A DNA stretch of 64,000 nucleotides from Candidatus Latescibacterota bacterium. Its GTDB lineage: Bacteria > Latescibacterota > UBA2968 > GCA-2709665. Positions 8,508-22,349 of this stretch are shown in pieces. Both the position numbers and the translations under genes were made by a program. The DNA lies in contig OZ252100.1 in assembly GCA_965248435.1 (NCBI GenBank), forward strand, positions 3,520,001 through 3,584,000, in the 5' to 3' direction. The notes under the pieces were generated by a model that worked only from the letters and a program-made list of their open reading frames with translations, ran no database searches and was not told the origin of the DNA. The number at the start of each line of letters is the position of its first letter. Position 1 is the stretch's first letter.

Positions 8508-9584
8508 TTAGTTGACAATGCTGTTGTTTCCCTTCAGCCGGAAGACGTAAGCCAGGACTTCGGCGACCGCCTTGTAGAGGTCATCGGGTATCTCTGCGCC
8601 TATCCCTACGGCCTTGAACAGCGTCTGCGCCAGTGGCTTGTTCTCCACGATGGGGACACCGGCCTGCTTCGCGACTTCCTTGATCTTTTCTGCGATCAGG
8701 TTCTGTCCCTTGGCAACAAGCTTCGGGGCATCCATGGATTCCATATCGTATCGGAGGGCGACGGCGTAGTGCGTCGGGTTTGTGACGACGACGTCAGCTT
8801 CAGGGACCTCATCCATCATGCGCTTGCGTGCCGCCTCTCTTTGCAGTGCACGGATGCGCATTCTGACCTGTGGGTCACCTTCTGTTTGTTTCAGCTCCTC
8901 CTTGACCTGCTGCTTGGTCATCTTGATGCTTTGGTTGTGCTCCCATCGCTGGTAAGCGTAGTCCAGTGCGGCCAGGACGAGGAGAGCGAGAGAGACATAC
9001 AGTCCTACTTTAAAGACCATGAATCCGATGAACTTGAACGCTGATCCCAGCGACGCATCGGCGAGGATCGCGATTCGTGGCAACTCGGGTGCGATCGTAA
9101 GGTAGCTGATGTATCCGACGATCAGGACTTTAAAGATTCCTTTGACCAGTTCCACGAGGGAACGCTTTGAAAAGATTCGCTTTGCCCCGGAGATCGGGTT
9201 CAGGCGGTTGAACTTGGGGACCAATGCCTCTTCACTCACCATGAAGCCGACCTGAGCCAGACTGACAGCCAGGGCTGCGACGCCGACGGTTAGCAGTATC
9301 GGTCCTATGGCTCCAAAGAACGTCTTTCCCCATCCCAAAAGGTGTGCTTGGAAGTTCGTGGGTGTCAGCTCGAAAGTGTGCACGCTCTCCAGTGTCGTTG
9401 TCATAAGGACGGACAAATCACGATAGAGAATGTCTCCGAGGAGGTAGATACTCGTGATTCCGGCCATCAACACCACGACAGAGTTGAGTTCCTGGCTTTT
9501 GGCAACCTGTCCCTTTCGCCGCGACTCTTCGCGGCGTCGTGGCGTTGCGGGTTCGGTCTTTTCTTGAAAAGATTCTTCAGCCAT
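8508..9584 (-). CDS. flhB: Flagellar export switch protein FlhB
   Basis: EKTEPAT N-terminus, EGDP, NPTH autocleavage motif. Confidence 0.97.
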   Translation of the reverse strand: MAEESFQEKTEPATPRRREESRRKGQVAKSQELNSVVVLMAGITSIYLLGDILYRDLSVLMTTTLESVHTFELTPTNFQAHLLGWGKTFFGAIGPILLTVGVAALAVSLAQVGFMVSEEALVPKFNRLNPISGAKRIFSKRSLVELVKGIFKVLIVGYISYLTIAPELPRIAILADASLGSAFKFIGFMVFKVGLYVSLALLVLAALDYAYQRWEHNQSIKMTKQQVKEELKQTEGDPQVRMRIRALQREAARKRMMDEVPEADVVVTNPTHYAVALRYDMESMDAPKLVAKGQNLIAEKIKEVAKQAGVPIVENKPLAQTLFKAVGIGAEIPDDLYKAVAEVLAYVFRLKGNNSIVN

Positions 9585-12865: not shown

Positions 12866-13663
12866 CTACTCTATGGGTTCTGGAGGATTCTCCCTGCCTT
12901 CTATCAGGACTCCGCGGTCTTCTATCGTTTTGTAAAGCTCTGTAGGCTTCAGGCCCATTCCACTCTCGTAGAGAACGTGGATTTCGACTCTCCGGTTCTG
13001 GTTCATGTTTTCCTCGGAGTCGTTTGGGACCAGCGGGCGATACTCGCTGTATCCCGTTATGGAGATCCGGTTGGGCGCGATCTTGCCGTTCTGGATGAGG
13101 TAACGTGCGACCGAAAGCGCCCGCATTCCAGACAGCTCCCAGTTGGACGCAAAGAATTCGGTGTTGATCGGGCGATTGTCAGTGTGCCCTTGAATATTGA
13201 TCTGGTTGCTCAACCCACTCAAGACATCTCCGACCTTTCCGAGCAACGGAAGCGCTTCCAGTTTGAGATTCGATTCTGCCAGGTCGAAGAACAGCTTGTC
13301 TGAGATCCGGATGATGATGCCGGAAGATGTCTCCTCCAGCATGACATCGCCCTGAAGCCCTGCATCCTCGATCGACTCCTCGAGTTCCTGAGAGGCCTTC
13401 GTCATGGATTCGGCCTGCGAAAGGTTGCCTTCCGTCTTGGGCAGGGACTGCCGGATGGAGAGGCTGAGTTGAGGCTCACCAGATAGAACACCGAGCGAAC
13501 CGGACAGGGCACCCATCGCGTGGTTGAATTGCTGCACGTTGACCGTTGAGAAGGAAATGAGGAGAACGAAGAAGGTCAGCAGGAGAGACATCAGGTCTCC
13601 GAAGGTGGCCAGCCAGCCCGGCAGGCCTTTAGGACAATCATCTTCTTTTATCTGCTTGCCCAC
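12866..13663 (-). CDS. motB: Stator protein MotB/PomB (downstream copy)
   Basis: WLATFGDLMSLLLTFFVL TM with conserved Asp; OmpA-like GHTD..SNWELS..RA..NRRVEI. Confidence 0.93.
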   Translation of the reverse strand: MGKQIKEDDCPKGLPGWLATFGDLMSLLLTFFVLLISFSTVNVQQFNHAMGALSGSLGVLSGEPQLSLSIRQSLPKTEGNLSQAESMTKASQELEESIEDAGLQGDVMLEETSSGIIIRISDKLFFDLAESNLKLEALPLLGKVGDVLSGLSNQINIQGHTDNRPINTEFFASNWELSGMRALSVARYLIQNGKIAPNRISITGYSEYRPLVPNDSEENMNQNRRVEIHVLYESGMGLKPTELYKTIEDRGVLIEGRENPPEPIE

Positions 13664-13696: not shown

Positions 13697-14497
13697 TCAT
13701 CTTCGTCTGATGATGTCGCTTCCATCATCGCGCGAACCCTTCACGCCGTAGTCCTCGAACACCTCTGAGATAATTCTCAGGTTTCCGTCGTCTTCCCCCG
13801 CATAGAGGATGTGGATTTCCACCCTGCGGTTCTTCTGCCGCCCTTCCTCCGTCGCGTTCGAGGCGATCGGTCGATACTCGCCGTATCCTTCGGCCGCGAG
13901 TCGTCGCGGATAGATCGTCTCTTCCGTGATGAGATAGCGCACGAGATTGACGGCCCGCTGGAAGGAGAGCTCCCAGTTGGACGGAAATGGTCCCGACCGG
14001 ACGGGGCGGTTATCCGTGTAGCCCTGAACGACGATGTTATTGGGCAAAAGCTTCAGGATCGCCCCGATCTGAGAAATCACGGGGATGATGGATTCCCGAA
14101 ACTCCGCAACCCCAAGATCGTAGAGGACGGGGGCGCGAATTCGGATCACGAGGCCTGTGGCTGTCCCTTCAAGTGCCAGATCTCCTTCCATCCCTTCGTC
14201 CGAGAGGGTCTTTTCGAGGGCCTCGGCAGCCTTGCGGATGTTCTGCGACTGGTTGATGCTTCCCCGGACCATGGGGATGCTGATGAAGATGGGCTGGCTC
14301 ATCTCGGGTTCGGAGTCAAAGACACCCAGCGCCCCCTTCAGAGATCCCATGGCTTTGTTAAACTTGACTTCTTCCATCGAGGAGAAGGACAGGATGAGCA
14401 CGAAGAATGTCAGCAGCAGGGACATCAGGTCGCCAAAGGTAGCGAGCCACCCCGGCAATCCCTTCGGACATTCGTCTTCATCTATCATCTTCGCCAT
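13697..14497 (-). CDS. motB: Stator protein MotB/PomB (upstream copy)
   Basis: Same TM motif; GYTDN..SNWELS..NRRVEI. Confidence 0.93.
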   Translation of the reverse strand: MAKMIDEDECPKGLPGWLATFGDLMSLLLTFFVLILSFSSMEEVKFNKAMGSLKGALGVFDSEPEMSQPIFISIPMVRGSINQSQNIRKAAEALEKTLSDEGMEGDLALEGTATGLVIRIRAPVLYDLGVAEFRESIIPVISQIGAILKLLPNNIVVQGYTDNRPVRSGPFPSNWELSFQRAVNLVRYLITEETIYPRRLAAEGYGEYRPIASNATEEGRQKNRRVEIHILYAGEDDGNLRIISEVFEDYGVKGSRDDGSDIIRRR

Positions 14498-15591: not shown

Positions 15592-17559
15592 TTACTGTTT
15601 AAGGTTGACTGTCTCGGCCAGGATCTGATCCGTCGTGGTCACCACCCGGGCGTTCGCCTGGAACCCCCGCTGGGAGACGATCAAATCGGTAAATTCCTGG
15701 GCCAGATCGACGTTGGAGAGCTCGAGTGCCCCGGCTGTGATCTGGGACTCGATCGTCTCCGCCGCGATCTCGATCAGCGGCGGGCCTGTGTTCTCCGTCT
15801 CGGAGAAGATGTTTCCACCGAGACGGTTCAGACCCCCCGGGTTGTCGAAGTTGGCCAGGTTGACCCTCGCCAGGTTCAGGGTCTCGCCGTTCGTGAACCG
15901 TCCCTCGACCACACCGTCCACCCCGATGAAGAGGGTATCCAGACGTCCGGCGGACCGGCCGTTCTGGTCGACCACATCGGCCGTGGATGGGGCGGCGAAC
16001 TGGGTCAATCCGTTGATCCCACGTTCGGGAACCGAGAGACCGGTAAACTCGATCTTGAGCGGCAGGACCTCGCCGTCGGGCGTAAACTCGACGAGCGTGC
16101 CCTCACCCTCGATCGGCGTGAAGGACCGGACGGAGCCGTCCTCGTCGAAGACGACGACACCGGTCCCGCCAGAGGTGGGGAACTGGTTGTCGATCTTCGT
16201 CGTGTAGGTCCACCTGTTCGCGACCGTCGTCCTGGCCAGGGTGATGTCCATCACGTGCGTCCGGCCCTGGGAGTCGAAGATGATCGTGCTGATCTCGTGC
16301 TCCGTCAGGCCGGCCGTGCCGATCAGGCCGCTTCCTGAGCCCTGGTCATCCATGGTGATGTTCATCGTGAACCCGGTGACCGAGCCTCCGGCCGCCTCCT
16401 GGAGCGCGATCTTTCCGGTCAGGTCCAGACTGCCCGTCACGCTGTCGCCGAAGGCGGCGGCGACCGTGTCGAGGAAGTTCTGGACCGTATCCGTCAAGGG
16501 AGTCGCGACCGTGAAGGTGCCGTTGAACGAGCTGCCGTCGGCCCGTGTGCCGCTGAACCGAAGGACGTCGCCGGCATCGAAGGCGGTGCCCACCTGGGCC
16601 AGGTCGTTCAGCAGGGTGGTGCCGCTGGCCACATTACTGGCGGTTCCGGCTGCGCCGAAGACCAGGGTCGCCAGCGCAGTGCCCGTGCCGACATCGGCCA
16701 GCGTGAGCTGAACGCCGCTGCCGCCGCTGGTCGTGCGGATCTGCACGGAACCGGCCGCGGCCGGGTCCTCCTGGACGACGACCGCGCCTGCCAGCCGCTC
16801 GTTGCCGGAGATGGCCGCGTTGAAGGCGTCCACGAACTTGTCGATCGTGAGGTAGGTCGTGTCGGGGATCGTGACGATCCCGCTGGTGACGCCCTCAGGC
16901 GCTGTGATCGTGATCTCTATCTGCTGCGGAGTCGCTACCGTGACCGGAAACCCGGGTCCCCCCGAGATCACGGAAGCGGTTGCAAACTCTGTGCCTATCG
17001 TCAACGCGGGGATCGGTCCTGGATCGACGTTACCCGACAGGCTGAGCCTCGATGTGGCGACGCCGGCGATCTCCCGGTTGAGATCGAGCTGGATGTTTTC
17101 GAGTCCGGTGGTGGCTCCGAATTGCCCCTCGGCATCGGCGATATTACCCTGTACAACCATGCCGTTGCTGGGGTTGACGAGCCGACCCAGGGCGTCGAAT
17201 GCGAACGCCCCGTCGCGGGTGTAGAACCTGGTTACGCCATCGCTGAGGATGAAGAAGCCGTCCCCCTCGATGGCCAGGTCCGTCTCCCGGCCGGTGGTCT
17301 GCAGGCTGCCTTGAATGAAGGACGTATCGATGCTCTTGAGGCGTACCCCGATCCCAATCTGGGAGGGGTTTGTGCCCGAGCGGGACCCTCTGGGTCCTGT
17401 GGCCTCCTTCACGGTCTGTGCCAGCAGTTCCTCGAAGTTTGCCCGACGCGTCTTGAAACCCGTGGTGTTGATGTTGGCAATGTTATCGGCCACCACGTTT
17501 GTTCGGGATTGGTGTGCCTGGATCCCAGACAGACCTGTAAACAACGAGTTACCAGACAT
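15592..17559 (-). CDS. flgE: Flagellar hook protein FlgE (655 aa, large central insertion)
   Basis: ADNIANINTTGFK, TGRETDLAIEGDGFF, YTRDGAF, LELSNVDLAQEFTDLIVSQRGFQANAR; ATG at 17559 with GGAGG SD. Confidence 0.93.
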   Translation of the reverse strand: MSGNSLFTGLSGIQAHQSRTNVVADNIANINTTGFKTRRANFEELLAQTVKEATGPRGSRSGTNPSQIGIGVRLKSIDTSFIQGSLQTTGRETDLAIEGDGFFILSDGVTRFYTRDGAFAFDALGRLVNPSNGMVVQGNIADAEGQFGATTGLENIQLDLNREIAGVATSRLSLSGNVDPGPIPALTIGTEFATASVISGGPGFPVTVATPQQIEITITAPEGVTSGIVTIPDTTYLTIDKFVDAFNAAISGNERLAGAVVVQEDPAAAGSVQIRTTSGGSGVQLTLADVGTGTALATLVFGAAGTASNVASGTTLLNDLAQVGTAFDAGDVLRFSGTRADGSSFNGTFTVATPLTDTVQNFLDTVAAAFGDSVTGSLDLTGKIALQEAAGGSVTGFTMNITMDDQGSGSGLIGTAGLTEHEISTIIFDSQGRTHVMDITLARTTVANRWTYTTKIDNQFPTSGGTGVVVFDEDGSVRSFTPIEGEGTLVEFTPDGEVLPLKIEFTGLSVPERGINGLTQFAAPSTADVVDQNGRSAGRLDTLFIGVDGVVEGRFTNGETLNLARVNLANFDNPGGLNRLGGNIFSETENTGPPLIEIAAETIESQITAGALELSNVDLAQEFTDLIVSQRGFQANARVVTTTDQILAETVNLKQ

Positions 17560-17672
17560 CTCTTGTGACCTCCATAGAGATGGTATCCACTGCCTCAATC
17601 GATCGGCAGCGGTGGGGCCTCCTCACTTGAGGTCCAGCCCCGGGGTGGTCCAACCTCCCAACCGCCCGTTCC
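17557..17672 (-). ncRNA. Candidate structured cis-regulatory leader of flgE
   Basis: Three consecutive hairpins: 17614-17641 with internal loop, 17587-17612 with GA..UGA-bounded loop, 17557-17582 covering the AUG. Confidence 0.55.
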
Positions 17673-17678
17673 CGTTAA

Positions 17679-17707
17679 AAAGTAAGGCGTTCGCTACTCA
17701 ACGTCAA
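17679..17707 (-). promoter_or_regulatory. Putative internal sigma70-type promoter for flgE
   Basis: Minus strand TTGACG-N17-TACTTT just upstream of the structured leader. Confidence 0.5.
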
Positions 17708-17739
17708 ACTCCGCGATCAAGCAGGGTTGTCGATCCGCC

Positions 17740-18168
17740 TTATTGGAGGACGACGGCACTGTCGATGTTGGTGAAGACGCTTTCCCGCATACGCTCACCA
17801 TCCATGGCGGTGACGACCGTCCGGTTGACGACGCTGACGACGAGCGCCAGGTCATCCGTCCGGGATGCGCCCGGGATCAGCACGAGGGCGTCTCTAGCAC
17901 CCTTGGCTGCGGCGCGGTCGACCGCATCATTCAGCCTGTCCATGGCCTGCTGCGTAAACTGGATATCCCTTGAGGTGAGCCGGTCCATGGCGTGGTTGGA
18001 GAATTGGAGCGCCTTTCCCTGGCCGATCTCCTTTTGAAACATCTCCTGGAAGGTGGGGGTCCCACGCTTCCCGACCGGATCCTGCCTCTTCGACGACTCG
18101 CCGATGGGGTCATGCCGCCCGATCCGGGGATCGAACGCGTGACGACCCAGGTGGTCGATCCGGTTCAT
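17740..18168 (-). CDS. Flagellar operon protein (TIGR02530 type)
   Basis: LQFSNHAMDRLTSRDI...AAAKGARDALVL...LVVSVVNRTVVTAMD...VFTNIDSAVV; lies between flgD and flgE. Confidence 0.88.
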   Translation of the reverse strand: MNRIDHLGRHAFDPRIGRHDPIGESSKRQDPVGKRGTPTFQEMFQKEIGQGKALQFSNHAMDRLTSRDIQFTQQAMDRLNDAVDRAAAKGARDALVLIPGASRTDDLALVVSVVNRTVVTAMDGERMRESVFTNIDSAVVLQ

Positions 18169-18180
18169 GGTTAACCTCCT

Positions 18181-18852
18181 TTAGAATATCCGAGTCACTG
18201 CTGAAAGCGGGGCTTCTCCGCCATCCAACGTCAGGATGGGGACCCCGTCTTCGTAGCGGACTCCTGTGACTTGGCCGGTTAAGGCCGCTGAGATGGTTAC
18301 CGGATTGCCCTGACCGTTCACGGCGGCGGAGACGATATGAAATTCTCCTGCCTCAACCACCTGCCCTACGGCATCCCTGCCGTCCCAAATCAGCGATCCG
18401 TTGCCTTCATTGGGCGAGAACTCGGTCAGCGTGCGGACGTGGTCGCCGCCCGCGTCGAAAATCAGGATGTCTACCTGATTGGCAGGACCCGCCAGGTGGT
18501 ACCCGAGTTCCACCGATCCGCCCCCTGAGTAGGCGACGGTATCCGTGGGGATTTCCACACCCTTGCCGATCAAGGAAACAGCTGTGTTGCCCTCGATGGC
18601 CTGGCGGAGATCCAACGTGGCCACCGCTTCGTCATCCGAAGAGACGGCCTTGTTGATGTGCTGAAGCTGTTCAAGAGAACTGAACTGCGCCAGCTGCGCG
18701 AGGAAATCCTGATTCTTCACGGGCTCCATGGGGTCCTGGTTCTGGAGTTGCACCAGCAGCAGCTTTAGGAAGGCATCCTGACCCAGGTTCTGGTTTTGTA
18801 CCAGCGATTGGGTAATCGATTCCTGCTGTTCTGGTGCGATGGGATCAACCAA
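18181..18852 (-). CDS. flgD: Hook capping protein FlgD
   Basis: LGQDAFLKLLLVQLQNQDPMEP..FLAQLAQFSSLEQ, C-terminal WDGRD Ig-like domain. Confidence 0.95.
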   Translation of the reverse strand: MVDPIAPEQQESITQSLVQNQNLGQDAFLKLLLVQLQNQDPMEPVKNQDFLAQLAQFSSLEQLQHINKAVSSDDEAVATLDLRQAIEGNTAVSLIGKGVEIPTDTVAYSGGGSVELGYHLAGPANQVDILIFDAGGDHVRTLTEFSPNEGNGSLIWDGRDAVGQVVEAGEFHIVSAAVNGQGNPVTISAALTGQVTGVRYEDGVPILTLDGGEAPLSAVTRIF

Positions 18853-18897: not shown

Positions 18898-21675
18898 CTA
18901 AGCGGTGAAATCCACGCCTCCGTCCTGAGGGGTGGAACCCCTTTGCCGGGATTCTTCCCACGGGTCGCGACGCTGCCGCGAATTGTCGCTGTCCTCTTCC
19001 GCCTTCCTGTCGGAGGCGTCCCGTGAAGAGGGCGAGGCGGGTTCTCGATCTGCCCCGGCCGATCCTCGCTGGTCGATCGAGACTTCGATCTGGTCGACCC
19101 GCACTCCCTGATTGACGAGGGATTCCGTCAGATCAGCCAAGTTGCCTCGCACGACCTGGTAGGCTTCGCGGTTCCCGACAGCGATTTCACCGGTTACCGT
19201 ATCGTTTACTGTCGCCAGCTTTATCGTGACTTCACCCAGCTCGGGTGGGTCCAACCGCAGGGTGACCTGGGTGGTGCCGTCACGAGAGAGGAGCCGCGCA
19301 CCCCGGACGAGCTGATCGGTGACCCGATGGGTCTCCTGCAGCACCTCGGGGCCAGGGCCTCTCTGTTGGACCGGCTCATTTCCCGTCAGCTGTGAGGGAC
19401 GCGGGGATGAAGGGGCCTGAACGGCCTGTGTCGGTCTTGCTGACACCGGTTCTCGAACCTCTTGAATCCGCTGGCCCTCGGGCTTCGGGGTTGCGTCCTG
19501 CTCGGAGTCGAGTGGCTGGGAGAATCTCCCCGCCTCTCTCTCCGGAGTTTGAGGCGTGTCGCCCGAACGCAACTGGACGATTTCCTCACCGTCGGCTTCG
19601 GGTTGGTCCTGCGTAGCGCTGGCACTCACCTGCGCCTTGCGGGACGCCTGTGGATCGACCGACACAACCCGTTTTGGCTCGACCTGGAGGGTCGGGCGTG
19701 CGGGCTCCTGCCGATGCTCAGCTTGTGGCTGAGCCGGCATTGCCCCGGGCTCGGTCTCCAGTCTCGCTGACGGTTCTGCTTTGGTTCCATTCGCTTCGCC
19801 TGTCCCTGTCGGGTGGTGACGCACGACATTCGGCTCGGCAGGCCCGGGCTGGAGTTTGGACTCCAGCGCGGGTTGATGGGTCGTCCTGGCTGCCGATTTG
19901 GCGACGTCAACAGGCCTCTCCTCGCCGGCCGTCCAGCTTACCTGTGGGCGATCCGGAACAGGAGCCGCTTGGGAATCAGCGGTCCTGCCGGTCTCCGAAG
20001 GAACAGACGACTGGCTTACAGAACCATCCATGTGGGTCTCAGGACTTGGGTGACCTGAATTTCTGGAGGCCTCCTGGCTGTGAACCCACCTGGGTTGGAC
20101 ATCATTTCTCACAAAGCTTCCAGCTGTTGGCGGGTCCCGATCTGCCGAGACTGCCACCTCCCCTGCCGACGCTGCAATAACACCTGCCAGAGGAGATGTG
20201 GCTGAACGACCCCCGCCCGATTCCACGACGCCCTCAGACGATTCCTGTTGGAACGGCATGACCCTGGGAGGAGAGTCGTTCATCCTTCCCTGGGGCAGCC
20301 TCCCGGACGCGAAGACCCCGGGTTGCTGATCGCTCAGCTTTCCCTGGGCCGAAGGCGTCCCGGACCCACCCGGTTCAGGCGGTTCGGGCTGGGACGTAAA
20401 GACCCCGGGTTGCTGATCGCTCAGCTTTCCCTGGGCCGAAGGCGTCCCGGACCCGCCCGGTTCAGGCGGTTTGGGCTGGGACGTAAAGACCCCGGGTTGC
20501 TGATCGCTCAGCTTTCCCTGGGCCGAAGGCGTCCCGGACCCACCCGGTTCAGGCGGTTCGGGCTGGGACGTAAAGACCCCGGGTTGCTGATCGCTCAGCT
20601 TTCCCTGGGCCGAAGGCGTCCCGGACCCGCCCGGTTCAGGCGGTTCGGGCTGGAATTCAACAGCGAGAAGTGATTCGTTCGGACGCACCTGACGGAGTAC
20701 CCCTGAGGATTCCGGTATTCCACCCTCGGACTGCTCTCCAAATAGGGGGTCTACCGGCGGTTGTCCACGTTGAGGGTTCTTCAAGTGTCCGAACGATTCT
20801 GATTCCGTGTCTTCCGGCGGCATTTCCGGTTTCAGGAGCACGGGTTGAGCGGGGTGCGGTCGAGATGATGCTTCGCCCCCGGCCCATCCGCCGTTCCCTT
20901 CCGAACCAAATCGTTCGAGAACGGGCTGGATTCCAAAACTCGGTCCTGAAATGAACGGGATGCCGCCCGACGGGACGGAGTCGGAAGACAGAATGCCTCC
21001 GCCGTCCCCCTCGGCCCTTCGAGGAGGTTCGACCTGCGAACTTCCCTGATCCTGGGTCGCGGGGATCTCTCCGGAATTCGGATGCTCCACTGGCTCAGGC
21101 GATTCCCTTCGCAGGAGGGTGACGTGGCCGGCTTCTACCGGTCCGTTCGTGACCCGGCCAGAAGGGCCGGGGTCGGTTTCACGTTCCTGCAGCACGGGAT
21201 TCGTATGATCCAAAACAGCGTCCTTCAGTCTCTCAAGACCTTTACCGGAAAGTGGGTGCTCCTTGGGATTCCTCGACTCACCATCCTGGATTTCCTCCGG
21301 AATGGCGGGGTCCTGGTCTCGGGCAGGCGCGGGTCTTTCTGCCTGGCCCCATCCAAGCGCCGAGGAGAGGTTCTCTCCTTCCTGAGCAGGTGGCTCTGAC
21401 TCCGCGCCCCATTCTGGTAGCTTTGGGGCGTTCGGATCTGTCCGGAGCGACCTGTCGGCCAAGATTCCTTCGATGAGCTTGGCCAATGAAGGATACACCG
21501 TTTGTGAGCCCCCGGTCGGCGAGGCCTGTCCCAGGTGCGCATCCAAGTCCTGCTGCGCCTGCTGAAGCGCTTCCTGGAACGGAGAATCCTGACTGCCGAA
21601 GAGTGCAGCATTCCCCGAAGGTCCCGTCGTGTTTTCAACCTCCGCCTCTAAGAGTTGGAGTGGATTGAGCAACAT
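18898..21675 (-). CDS. fliK: Hook-length control protein FliK (925 aa)
   Basis: Long P/S/Q/E-rich region plus C-terminal T3S4 domain LRLDPPELGEVTI; ATG at 21675 preceded by GGAGA. Confidence 0.88.
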   Translation of the reverse strand: MLLNPLQLLEAEVENTTGPSGNAALFGSQDSPFQEALQQAQQDLDAHLGQASPTGGSQTVYPSLAKLIEGILADRSLRTDPNAPKLPEWGAESEPPAQEGENLSSALGWGQAERPAPARDQDPAIPEEIQDGESRNPKEHPLSGKGLERLKDAVLDHTNPVLQERETDPGPSGRVTNGPVEAGHVTLLRRESPEPVEHPNSGEIPATQDQGSSQVEPPRRAEGDGGGILSSDSVPSGGIPFISGPSFGIQPVLERFGSEGNGGWAGGEASSRPHPAQPVLLKPEMPPEDTESESFGHLKNPQRGQPPVDPLFGEQSEGGIPESSGVLRQVRPNESLLAVEFQPEPPEPGGSGTPSAQGKLSDQQPGVFTSQPEPPEPGGSGTPSAQGKLSDQQPGVFTSQPKPPEPGGSGTPSAQGKLSDQQPGVFTSQPEPPEPGGSGTPSAQGKLSDQQPGVFASGRLPQGRMNDSPPRVMPFQQESSEGVVESGGGRSATSPLAGVIAASAGEVAVSADRDPPTAGSFVRNDVQPRWVHSQEASRNSGHPSPETHMDGSVSQSSVPSETGRTADSQAAPVPDRPQVSWTAGEERPVDVAKSAARTTHQPALESKLQPGPAEPNVVRHHPTGTGEANGTKAEPSARLETEPGAMPAQPQAEHRQEPARPTLQVEPKRVVSVDPQASRKAQVSASATQDQPEADGEEIVQLRSGDTPQTPEREAGRFSQPLDSEQDATPKPEGQRIQEVREPVSARPTQAVQAPSSPRPSQLTGNEPVQQRGPGPEVLQETHRVTDQLVRGARLLSRDGTTQVTLRLDPPELGEVTIKLATVNDTVTGEIAVGNREAYQVVRGNLADLTESLVNQGVRVDQIEVSIDQRGSAGADREPASPSSRDASDRKAEEDSDNSRQRRDPWEESRQRGSTPQDGGVDFTA
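20312..20653. repeat. In-frame 87-bp tandem repeat, ~3.9 copies, inside fliK
   Basis: GACCCCGGGTTGCTGATC... starts at 20314, 20401, 20488 and 20575; encodes QPEPPEPGGSGTPSAQGKLSDQQPGVFTS. Confidence 0.98.
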
Positions 21676-21745
21676 GGGATGAATCTCCAATTGGGACTCT
21701 GGTAAACCGCAATTGCCAAGCGATAGTCCTACAACTGGAAGTATG

Positions 21746-21761
21746 TGAAAGATCGGTGCCG
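21746..21761 (-). promoter_or_regulatory. Possible degenerate sigma54 promoter for fliK-flgD
   Basis: CGGCAC-CGATC-TTTCA: good -24 element, but the -12 reads TC instead of GC. Confidence 0.3.
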
Positions 21762-21773
21762 TGAATCCGAACA

Positions 21774-22349
21774 TTATTGTTTGCCTCCACCCTTTCCCTC
21801 CAGGAGCTGTGCGGAGAGACTGGCTTTTCGTTCGTCGTTGGCGAGGCCGTTCAGGATTCTGGCGGCTTGACGCTCGTCTAGCGTTGGAAGGATTTCAAGC
21901 ACCATTTGGTCGCTCATCTGGTCCATGATGGCGGCCGCGTCAGCGGGGCGCATCGCTCCGTAGAGTGTCGTAAGCTGTTCCAACCGCTCGGATCGGAGCT
22001 TGCTCTTGTCTTCACTCCCGGATTCGCCCTGCTGAATGAGGTCCTTGACCTCCGTGGAAAGCGAGTCTCTGACCTGAACCAGGACTTTCTGCTCATCGAC
22101 GAGCCTTTGGAGATCGCCTTGGAGTTCCTCCTTCTGCTGCTGCAAAAGCATCAGAGCGTCTTGTTCCTCGGAGACTTCTCCGGCCCTTAGAAACGCACTT
22201 TGACTGCCGGGCATCTCTCCCAACAACAGGGCACGTGCTTCGTCCACGTTTTCTACAACGCCTGTGGCGAAGAGCATGACCAGCCCGATGGCTGAGAACG
22301 AGAGACCCATACCGATAAGCAGCAGCAGCACGAGTGCGAGCTTTTTCAT
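21774..22349 (-). CDS. MotE/YlxF/FlbB-like protein (TM + coiled coil + MgtE-N-like helical domain)
   Basis: LYGAMRPADAAAIMDQM...ILPTLDERQAARIL; lies between fliJ and fliK. Confidence 0.8.
   Translation of the reverse strand: MKKLALVLLLLIGMGLSFSAIGLVMLFATGVVENVDEARALLLGEMPGSQSAFLRAGEVSEEQDALMLLQQQKEELQGDLQRLVDEQKVLVQVRDSLSTEVKDLIQQGESGSEDKSKLRSERLEQLTTLYGAMRPADAAAIMDQMSDQMVLEILPTLDERQAARILNGLANDERKASLSAQLLEGKGGGKQ

Follow-up and report, generated by a model that had tools for sequence, protein, structure and literature searches.

A widespread two-hairpin RNA motif in the leaders of flagellar rod and hook genes, and its association with the TIGR02530 protein family

The locus between flgD and flgE

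The window analysed here is a whole 64,000-nucleotide (nt) stretch of a Candidatus Latescibacterota genome (assembly GCA_965248435.1, contig OZ252100.1, positions 3,520,001 to 3,584,000), and our subject is the short RNA leader of its hook gene flgE, together with the TIGR02530-family gene just upstream of that leader. All genes around flgE are on the minus strand (Table 1), with flbD, motA/motB and, farther on, flhB and flhA downstream of flgE; the TIGR02530 protein is assigned to its family by a profile score above the curated cut-off and by its position between flgD and flgE. An earlier sequence-only reading had described the gap in front of flgE as 180 nt long, which is borne out (17560-17739), and as holding two consecutive hairpins. 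We find both on the minus strand exactly as written there, GGGGCUGGACCUCAAGUGAGGAGGCCCC at 17641-17614 (P1) and CCGCUGCCGAUCGAUUGAGGCAGUGG at 17612-17587 (P2), and refer to this 55-nt element at 17587-17641 (-) as the motif.

P1 and P2 are both present in the minimum-free-energy fold of the window leader, whose folding energy is modestly unusual (z -2.06, with 8 of 200 shuffles folding equally well); the strength of the evidence for the motif thus rests on comparison, since energy alone is only modest. A further hairpin proposed over the Shine-Dalgarno (SD) sequence and the AUG forms in the window's own fold but is absent from the consensus fold of nine relatives, which contains P1 and P2 only and no conserved SD-sequestering helix.

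Table 1. Features of the flgE leader and its surroundings (window coordinates).
Feature	Position	Strand	Evidence or remarks
fliK	18898-21774	-	PF02120; 958 amino acids (aa)
flgD (hook cap), upstream of the TIGR02530 gene	18181-18852	-	PF03963 70 bits, PF13861, PF13860, NF005176
TIGR02530-family gene, 142 aa	17740-18168	-	TIGR02530.1 106.5 bits (cut-off 83.2); PF12611
Gap between TIGR02530 gene and flgE, 180 nt	17560-17739	-	
Promoter-like text TTGACG-N17-TACTTT	17679-17707	-	text present; promoter role unsupported
Full covariance-model match (P1, P2 and short flanks)	17581-17649	-	model R2, 70.3 bits, E 5e-13
P1 hairpin	17614-17641	-	outer stem GGGGCU/GGCCCC, internal loop GGA opposite A, inner stem CCUC/GAGG, variable loop AAGU
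P2 hairpin	17587-17612	-	8-bp stem closing loop GAUCGAUUGA (GAnnGAnnGA)
flgE SD sequence GGAGG	17569-17573	-	13 nt after P2, 9 nt before AUG; read from the sequence
flgE (hook protein), 655 aa, downstream of the leader	15592-17559	-	NF004241 343.6 bits, TIGR03506 259.4 bits, Pfam FlgE domains
flhB (export-gate component)	8508-9584	-	PF01312 435 bits; C-terminal domain is the proposed dock for the TIGR02530 N-terminus

A conserved, covarying RNA behind TIGR02530 genes

The TIGR02530 gene occurs in 10 of 61 related genomes, always in the order flgD, TIGR02530, flgE, and the two-hairpin motif is found in the gap of all ten, the remainder of each gap being dissimilar. RNAalifold on these ten relatives returns 18 base pairs, of which nine show compensatory changes. 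The ten were used to build a covariance model (R1), which was run on 80 loci fetched from named genomes by a TIGR02530 protein profile; according to their record titles, these represent Bacillota (Peptococcaceae, Thermincola, Paenibacillus, Sporomusa, Halanaerobiales), Bdellovibrio (Bdellovibrionota), Planctomycetales, KSB1, Fibrobacteraceae, Zixibacteria and others. R1 gives 74 matches at E <= 1, every one on the strand of the gene and, apart from a second weak match in one locus (L081, E 0.14), just behind it. A second model (R2), built from 67 instances, matches 79 of the 80 loci just downstream of the TIGR02530 gene at E <= 0.1 and misses only L043. Although R2 was derived from genomes other than that of the window, it finds the window motif at 70.3 bits, and the next match in the 64 kb reaches only 12.9 bits (E 0.38); the whole source genome holds a single copy.

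Among the 67 instances, 94.3% of cells are paired, 15 of 18 pairs have changed on both sides, and the covariation score is 0.481 compared with a shuffled mean of 0.176 (reached by 0 of 500 shuffles) and at most 0.106 when the partners are slid. A second, independent set was obtained by searching metagenome contigs with a DNA pattern, which matched at least 119 stretches, from which 80 loci were fetched. Here 65 of 80 loci pass R2 at E <= 0.01, with 94.5% of cells paired and a covariation score of 0.532 versus 0.165 (0 of 500 shuffles), and all seven modelled P2 pairs are compensatory, as they are in the 67-instance set. We treat as chance pattern matches the 15 loci that fail R2, which lack flagellar neighbours, and likewise L229, a weak pass (24.3 bits) with no flagellar gene beside it. 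Three points weigh against reading these figures at face value: 109 of 500 shuffles match the metagenome set in the number of pairs changed on both sides (12), any alignment fitted to a model is biased towards the structure of that model, and related sequences can outscore shuffles even when they have no structure.

The motif has no counterpart in Rfam 15. A search of window positions 17300-18400 in E-value mode gives best three matches of E 5.2-7.1 and 12-14 bits, where gathering thresholds are 40-50, and 20 motif-bearing loci give no match at the gathering threshold; our search of the openly accessible main literature found no description of a motif in flgE leaders. The sequence-only reading had pointed to similar text, GGCUGGACC..GGA(A/G)GCC with GA..GA, behind TIGR02530 genes in Firmicutes, and this proves correct in the fetched loci; the conserved covarying structure that it had anticipated in orthologous gaps is also found, with no Rfam family covering the leader. 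We conclude that the two-hairpin leader is a real structured RNA motif. The idea that the conserved text acts instead as DNA, a promoter or operator of flgE, could draw on a faint likeness of P2 GCCGA to the sigma-28 -10 box. We give this next to no credence, as compensatory changes preserve pairing in both stems, no -35 partner is conserved, and 162 of 162 model matches, taken over TIGR02530, extra-copy and metagenome loci, fall on the strand of the neighbouring flagellar gene.

Anatomy of the motif

We counted sequence variants in 165 unique instances. P1 consists of a variable outer stem followed by a near-fixed core, GCYGGACC...GGRRGC, in which a 3-nt GGA internal loop faces one purine and is flanked by a Y-R pair and two C-G pairs, the latter nearly unchanging (66 of 67 each). 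The core has the 5' sequence GCUGGACC in 110 instances and GCCGGACC in 19, GGA is replaced by GGU in 15, GGC in 4 and CGA in 4, and the 3' side is GGAAGC in 84, GGAGGC in 38, GGGAGC in 20 and GGGGGC in 12. P2 is a freely covarying stem of 5-8 bp that closes a GAnnGAnnGA loop, exact in 141 of 165 instances. In three loci (L036, L038 and L061) this loop has A in place of its first G and C in place of its last A, a joint change that fits tandem non-canonical G-A pairs extending the P2 stem. Loci labelled Bdellovibrio keep P1 (as GGUCC) and have lost the P2 GA loop, and P1 is thus the universal part of the motif. Directly 5' of P1, a CCACCC(C/A/U) heptamer (window 17642-17649) is present in nine of the ten relatives (L002-L010, not L001) and not in other phyla.

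The P2 loop, which the sequence-only reading had likened to kink-loop geometry, suggests a possible kink-loop (K-loop). As in K-turns and K-loops, the P2 helix is extended by 5'-GA...GA-3' text that could form tandem sheared G-A pairs beside the loop; unlike them, P2 has a middle GA and a fixed 2-nt spacing that fall outside the definition, and no L7Ae-type protein is implicated. The P2 sequence is compatible with a K-loop.

Strong conservation at unpaired positions, close to a ribosome-binding site, would also be expected of a riboswitch aptamer through which a small molecule or ion tunes hook synthesis. This we consider very improbable: the motif is two simple hairpins in which we find no junction or pseudoknot, an expression platform is missing (a scan of window 17300-18400 returns no terminator-like sites, and no SD-sequestering helix is conserved), the GA loop can be lost with P1 kept, as in the Bdellovibrio-labelled loci, and strict co-occurrence with one protein gene, documented below, is typical of protein-binding leaders.

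Co-occurrence of the motif with TIGR02530

In the 61 relatives, the gene and the motif are carried by the same ten genomes, and FlgD is found in 12; the two genomes with FlgD and no TIGR02530 (G053 and G059) have a plain flgD-gap-flgE arrangement without the motif. Two larger samples were searched with strict filters, one comprising 151 genomes of the class of Paenibacillus sp. Soil787 and the other 101 genomes of the class of Sporomusa malonica. In the Paenibacillus-class sample, 111 genomes have FlgD, 69 have TIGR02530 (61 of them over the cut-off) and 59 have the motif, each of these 59 also having TIGR02530; the 82 genomes that lack TIGR02530, 42 of them with FlgD, yield no motif match. 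The Sporomusa-class sample has the motif in 62 genomes, TIGR02530 in 61 and both in 58, and 32 of the 62 motif-bearing genomes have at least two copies, all 32 with TIGR02530. Four Sporomusa-class genomes have the motif and no TIGR02530 match. FlgD is missing from each of them as well; no match of FlgE length is found in two, the only FlgE of the third sits on a 2.6-kb contig, and the fourth has a contig end 25 nt away from the motif. We therefore reject these as counter-examples and regard them as assembly gaps that are uninformative either way.

These counts establish that the motif is restricted to TIGR02530-encoding genomes in all three samples, with four FlgD-less assemblies as the sole exceptions. 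The expectation of the sequence-only reading that the motif would be missing where TIGR02530 is missing is thus supported, both in the 42 flagellated Paenibacillus-class genomes and in the two such relatives. The strength of this association must be tempered by several observations. Most copies adjoin the gene, so that co-occurrence is partly physical linkage and shared descent, and the genomes within a sample are kin. Further, no motif match is found in 10 of the 69 TIGR02530-positive Paenibacillus-class genomes (3 over the cut-off, 7 with longer sub-cut-off homologues) or in 3 of 61 from the Sporomusa class, and the mutual information between protein columns and RNA variants (GGA versus GGU/GGC; GA loop present or absent) across 143 pairs peaks at only 0.27 bits and is confounded by lineage. 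The copies in front of flgG and flgB described below are the more telling evidence.

Eight Paenibacillus-class genomes (G070, G095, G134, G150, G164, G178, G191 and G203) have sub-cut-off TIGR02530-like matches (60-73 bits) in open reading frames (ORFs) of 183-265 aa. Seven of these have no motif match and one has a weak match (E 3.4e-4); these genomes may represent a diverged TIGR02530 subfamily that has lost the RNA.

A different flagellar regulator, CsrA with FliW or FlbD, might bind the motif in place of TIGR02530, an explanation that appeals to the invariant GGA in P1, since GGA is the sequence that CsrA reads, and to the presence of flbD after flgE in the window. We find this improbable. 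The GGA of P1 lies in an internal loop and not in a hairpin loop, FlbD and CsrA also occur in Bacillus subtilis-type operons, where a control search finds no TIGR02530 in B. subtilis, and the absence of the motif from all 82 TIGR02530-less Paenibacillus-class genomes speaks against either protein as the reader.

Target genes and placement in the transcript

Wherever the sequence extends far enough, the gene that follows the motif is a rod or hook gene, mostly flgE. We also find the motif before flgG, flgB and a second flgE, without an adjoining TIGR02530 gene, and NCBIfam confirms the neighbours of these copies as FlgG, FlgB-FlgC-FliE and a second FlgE. In Sporomusa malonica the motif occurs three times, between TIGR02530 and flgE, between flgF and flgG, and between a second flgD and a second flgE where there is no TIGR02530 gene; Fuchsiella has a second copy between flgF and flgG, and a Planctomycetales assembly has one before flgB-flgC-fliE. 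TIGR02530 directly precedes the motif in 56 of the 64 strong instances from metagenomes (two of these, L173 and L212, were assigned by eye, and L179 was counted without that check); four others lie between flgF and flgG (L184, L194, L196 and L231) and three are cut by a contig end. The last, L185, has the order flgD, motif, a 260-aa FlgE/FlgG-like gene and then TIGR02530, from which we see that the TIGR02530 gene can lie downstream of the controlled gene. The motif is therefore a leader of flagellar axial-protein (rod and hook) genes and not a satellite of the TIGR02530 gene. The sequence-only reading, which had tied a flgE leader to the adjoining TIGR02530 gene, captured the usual case and fell short for the copies before flgG, flgB and a second flgE that have no TIGR02530 gene beside them.

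P1 begins a median of 8 nt behind the upstream stop codon (quartiles -1, 8 and 33; n = 143), and this spacing is at most 15 nt in 95 of 143 loci, while the P2 end is a median of 40 nt from the start codon (quartiles 34-48; n = 149). The corresponding distances in the window are 98 nt, which is unusually long, and 27 nt. With so short a distance from the stop codon, the motif lies inside a polycistronic message in most lineages, and the 95 loci in which it begins within 15 nt of the TIGR02530 stop leave no room for a promoter. The leader's own promoter, TTGACG-N17-TACTTT, which had been proposed from the window alone, fares poorly on this evidence: the text is present at 17707-17679, but no sigma-70 consensus site is found in 17300-18400, and it is absent from the gaps of the nearest relatives. 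In three relatives (L005, around 1860-1925, L006 and L007), unrelated inverted repeats lie between the TIGR02530 stop and the motif, e.g., GCGGAATGTGGATT…AATCCACATTCCGC in L005, and these could be terminator-like or repeat elements.

RNA data from a strain about 94% alike to the window were available as assembled contigs from four metatranscriptome runs of one study, in which transcript ends and strand are not resolvable. In two of the four runs a single contig extends from flgE across the leader into the TIGR02530 gene (17000-18193 and 17000-18143), which fits co-transcription, and one contig of run X2 ends at 17703. Within the motif this strain differs from the window only at 17625, 17626 and 17628, in the P1 loop, and at 17589, where the change turns a P2 G-U pair into G-C.

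A position inside long operons is also what would be expected if the motif works without TIGR02530, either as a processing or stabilising element for general RNases, giving FlgE and FlgG messages a protected 5' end within long transcripts, or as a ribosome standby site or enhancer, with co-travel explained by a shared ancestral operon type. The short distance from the upstream stop codon, the bridging RNA contigs, the SD-like GAGGA/AGGAGG in the 3' strand of P1, and the location of the motif before the genes of the most abundant early subunits, flgE and flgG, are all consistent with such a role. Nevertheless, we judge it fairly unlikely: the 42 flagellated Paenibacillus-class genomes without TIGR02530 all possess ribosomes and general RNases, yet none has the motif; copies distant from the TIGR02530 gene are found only in genomes that encode TIGR02530; and the near-invariant unpaired nucleotides (GGA and GAnnGAnnGA) across phyla suggest a dedicated, conserved reader.

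Fold of the TIGR02530 protein

AlphaFold2 models of the window protein have a mean predicted local distance difference test score (pLDDT) of 67.1 when built from 23 sequences and 74.2 when built from 98. Both models have a low-confidence N-terminus and a helix at 40-50, then two further helices, three strands, a short helix and a last strand. Residues 50-142 are predicted to form an alpha/beta domain with the FSxHAxxRLxxRxI segment and a C-terminal VFTNIDSAV, and the invariant polar residues of the family are H59, K89, T117, T120, T133 and D136. The sequence-only reading had likened this protein to RelE, BrnT and DUF4258 folds. An aligner independent of Foldseek (VIA) places RelE, ParE and HigB toxins on top, in seven of the top ten rows of the second of two comparisons, with RelE1 (9g12_B) as the best match at Z 5.8, root-mean-square deviation (rmsd) 3.1 and 68 aligned residues in the first comparison, and Z 5.5, rmsd 2.7 and 65 aligned in the second.

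Profile comparisons lean the same way. Pfam DUF4258 (PF14076) gives sub-threshold matches in 13 of 23 family members (best E 0.0068) and none for the window's own protein. For a direct comparison, 25 DUF4258 ORFs were collected from 30 loci in the relatives, and 15 were aligned after near-duplicates were dropped; hhalign of TIGR02530 against these 15 gives probabilities of 85.7% (alignment A1) and 87.1% (A8), with E of ~4-6e-6 over 55 columns that span FSxHAxxRxxxRxI and the first strands. DUF4258 genes themselves are common in the relatives, occurring in 41 of 61 with up to six matches per genome, and the source genome has one (C1:930270-930473).

Other results limit this likeness. Foldseek against the PDB finds nothing at E <= 0.001 (we treat its top rows, ribosome-inactivating proteins with a probability of at most 0.47, as noise), and Z of 5.5-5.8 is below the typical best of the aligner for unmatched models (Z 7-8). 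The DUF4258 cut-off of Pfam is never reached among the 23 members, and of the DUF4258 invariants H21, E47, Y49, H71, T86, Y88 and P90, only H21 aligns with a TIGR02530 invariant (H59); catalysis may be lost, as only this first His matches. A profile search of PDB sequences returns two chance-level rows (E 1 and 1.5), and the ESM Atlas gives no usable match for TIGR02530. The likeness of TIGR02530 to the DUF4258 and RelE/ParE folds is thus weak but repeated; what stands of the earlier comparison is this recurrent resemblance, and what does not is a fold match above noise.

DUF4258 is filed among BECR-fold toxin families in PMC11980606 and 10.64898/2026.08.28.747851, the former describing it as a toxin-antitoxin toxin of unknown activity; the string 'flagell' is absent from the main texts of both. 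Our search of the open literature found, among the papers listed, none giving a function for TIGR02530/PF12611. In a preprint on phage G (10.1101/2024.12.16.628780), ORF gp136 is described as TIGR02530-related; a tblastn search with a Paenibacillus TIGR02530 member at E <= 1e-3 returns MT835480.1 as the sole phage record, and the phage G homologue is thus not confirmed. MT835480.1 (34633-40929; our locus L290), titled 'UNVERIFIED: Bacteriophage sp.' and from a faecal sample, has a TIGR02530 homologue with the motif directly behind it (34.5 bits, E 1.3e-6), and is probably bacterial flagellar DNA.

An export-like N-terminus

The N-terminus of TIGR02530, approximately residues 1-38, is predicted to be disordered, with pLDDT below 50 at residues 1-4 and 6-38 in the first model and averages of 46-57 for the first four 10-residue blocks in the second. 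Just behind it, at an invariant F40 column, each of the 98 aligned family members has an F-x-x-x-[LIVMF] motif, at a distance of 30-52 residues (median 37) from the N-terminus. The gate-recognition motif of exported subunits is said to have been worded as F-x-x-x-hydrophobic by Evans in 2013. In the window protein the motif is F40-QEM-F44 (FQEMF), comparable to FLKLL at 28 in FlgD and FEELL at 42 in FlgE; a predicted disordered N-terminal region and a gate-recognition-like motif at this position are both features of an early export substrate. PMC8983047 describes the gate-recognition motif of early rod and hook subunits as a small hydrophobic sequence, residues 36-40 in FlgD, that lies at least 30 residues from the N-terminus and docks onto the C-terminal domain of FlhB.

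A predicted complex of FlhB 210-358 with TIGR02530 1-60 scores 0.36, the best of three controls scoring 0.00, with at least 81% of contacts in agreement between runs and a partner pLDDT of at least 47. Of 157 solved complexes, 116 reach the mark used for such predictions, as do 2 of 215 mismatched pairs; but only 18 of the 157 solved complexes do so with a score of 0.60 or below, a range that includes both passing mismatches. We take the result as weak support for docking. As the N-terminal motif resembles those of exported rod and hook subunits, the cytoplasmic level of TIGR02530 may follow export activity.

Other features of the window

Two adjoining MotB-like ORFs follow motA, at 12866-13663 (-) and 13697-14497 (-); the second is confirmed by MotB_plug and OmpA domains, and the first is assigned from its sequence alone. 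The FliK homologue is very long and holds approximately four tandem copies of a 29-residue unit (…PEPPEPGGSGTPSAQGKLSDQQPGVFTSQ…), with repeats at ~20270-20660 that were seen in ORF translations without a repeat finder. Two weak R2 matches 174 nt apart in the window have identical scores and were noted with these repeats.

Discussion

The best explanation of these data is that the element before flgE exemplifies a widespread and so far undescribed cis-regulatory RNA motif that occupies the leaders of axial-protein genes, in most cases flgE, with flgG, flgB or a second flgE as additional sites in some genomes. We propose that this motif is the RNA site of the TIGR02530 protein. On this view TIGR02530 would be a diverged member of the DUF4258/RelE-like (BECR-fold) proteins and, by binding the motif or cutting at it, would control how well the rod and hook messages that follow are translated or how stable they are. 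That TIGR02530 is the direct reader of the leader is a view towards which we lean slightly, on the strength of co-occurrence and of the conserved unpaired nucleotides; we infer both the identity of the protein as ligand and the direction of control. In a further step, the export-like N-terminus would make the cytoplasmic level of TIGR02530 track export activity. On such a scheme, a domesticated BECR/RelE-like RNA binder or cutter, exported as an early substrate, would report by its level on rod and hook building and would switch translation of flgE, flgG and flgB through P1-P2, a checkpoint that we regard as unlikely in this complete form.

Several known systems resemble parts of this proposal. 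In the control of the flagellin (hag) leader by CsrA and FliW in Bacillus subtilis, a protein attaches to the 5' leader of a flagellar structural gene close to its SD, as is proposed here, and the control is coupled to subunit export; in that system the gene is a late one, flagellin, and CsrA reads a hairpin-loop GGA, whereas here the motif precedes early genes of the rod and hook, the candidate protein is BECR/RelE-like and the GGA is in an internal loop. FlgM, which restrains sigma-28, is a regulator encoded among flagellar genes and exported by the flagellar type III system, a match that is limited to the possible export step here; FlgM is a late substrate and acts on transcription as an anti-sigma factor, while TIGR02530 has an early-substrate-like N-terminal motif and would act on mRNA. 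Control of Yersinia yop mRNAs by YopD/LcrH and LcrQ parallels the proposed scheme in that a secreted type III substrate binds 5' untranslated regions of mRNAs of its own secretion system, but the system is an injectisome, the protein fold is unrelated, and no such structured covarying RNA motif is known there.

The proposed protein and RNA have their own parallels. Like DUF4258 (PF14076) and RelE-ParE BECR toxins, TIGR02530 has an N-terminal helix motif, (F/I)SxHAxxRxxxRxI, followed by a beta-sheet; unlike the DUF4258 toxins, it has no antitoxin-like neighbour in the window, has a disordered N-terminal extension of 40-50 residues, lies in flagellar operons and keeps one DUF4258 invariant. The motif resembles the autoregulatory leaders of ribosomal-protein operons, which are also small, structured, widespread and covarying mRNA leaders and are read by a protein of the same operon, as is proposed here, except that the TIGR02530 gene usually lies upstream of the site with the controlled genes downstream, and that no rRNA mimicry is identified. 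In Campylobacter jejuni, PMC11187230 describes small RNAs connected with the flgE operon, which share with the scheme proposed here post-transcriptional control linked to flgE transcripts, and differ in being trans-acting small RNAs and not a leader structure.

With an RNA of ~55 nt and a small protein, the system should lend itself readily to assays of binding, cleavage, reporter output and secretion. The motif adds to flagellar biology a widespread and strongly covarying cis-regulatory RNA class that has no match in Rfam 15, and gives TIGR02530, a family found in the flagellar operons of many phyla, a first concrete, testable candidate function. In bacteria with long flagellar operons, where the setting of subunit amounts is poorly understood, the motif suggests that the supply of hook and rod subunits is controlled after transcription. 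If TIGR02530 is a BECR-fold relative, a toxin-type RNase fold would have been recruited to housekeeping regulation; and the checkpoint, if true, would be an RNA-level counterpart of the FlgM checkpoint that acts on early genes and is conserved from Bacillota to Planctomycetes and Bdellovibrio.

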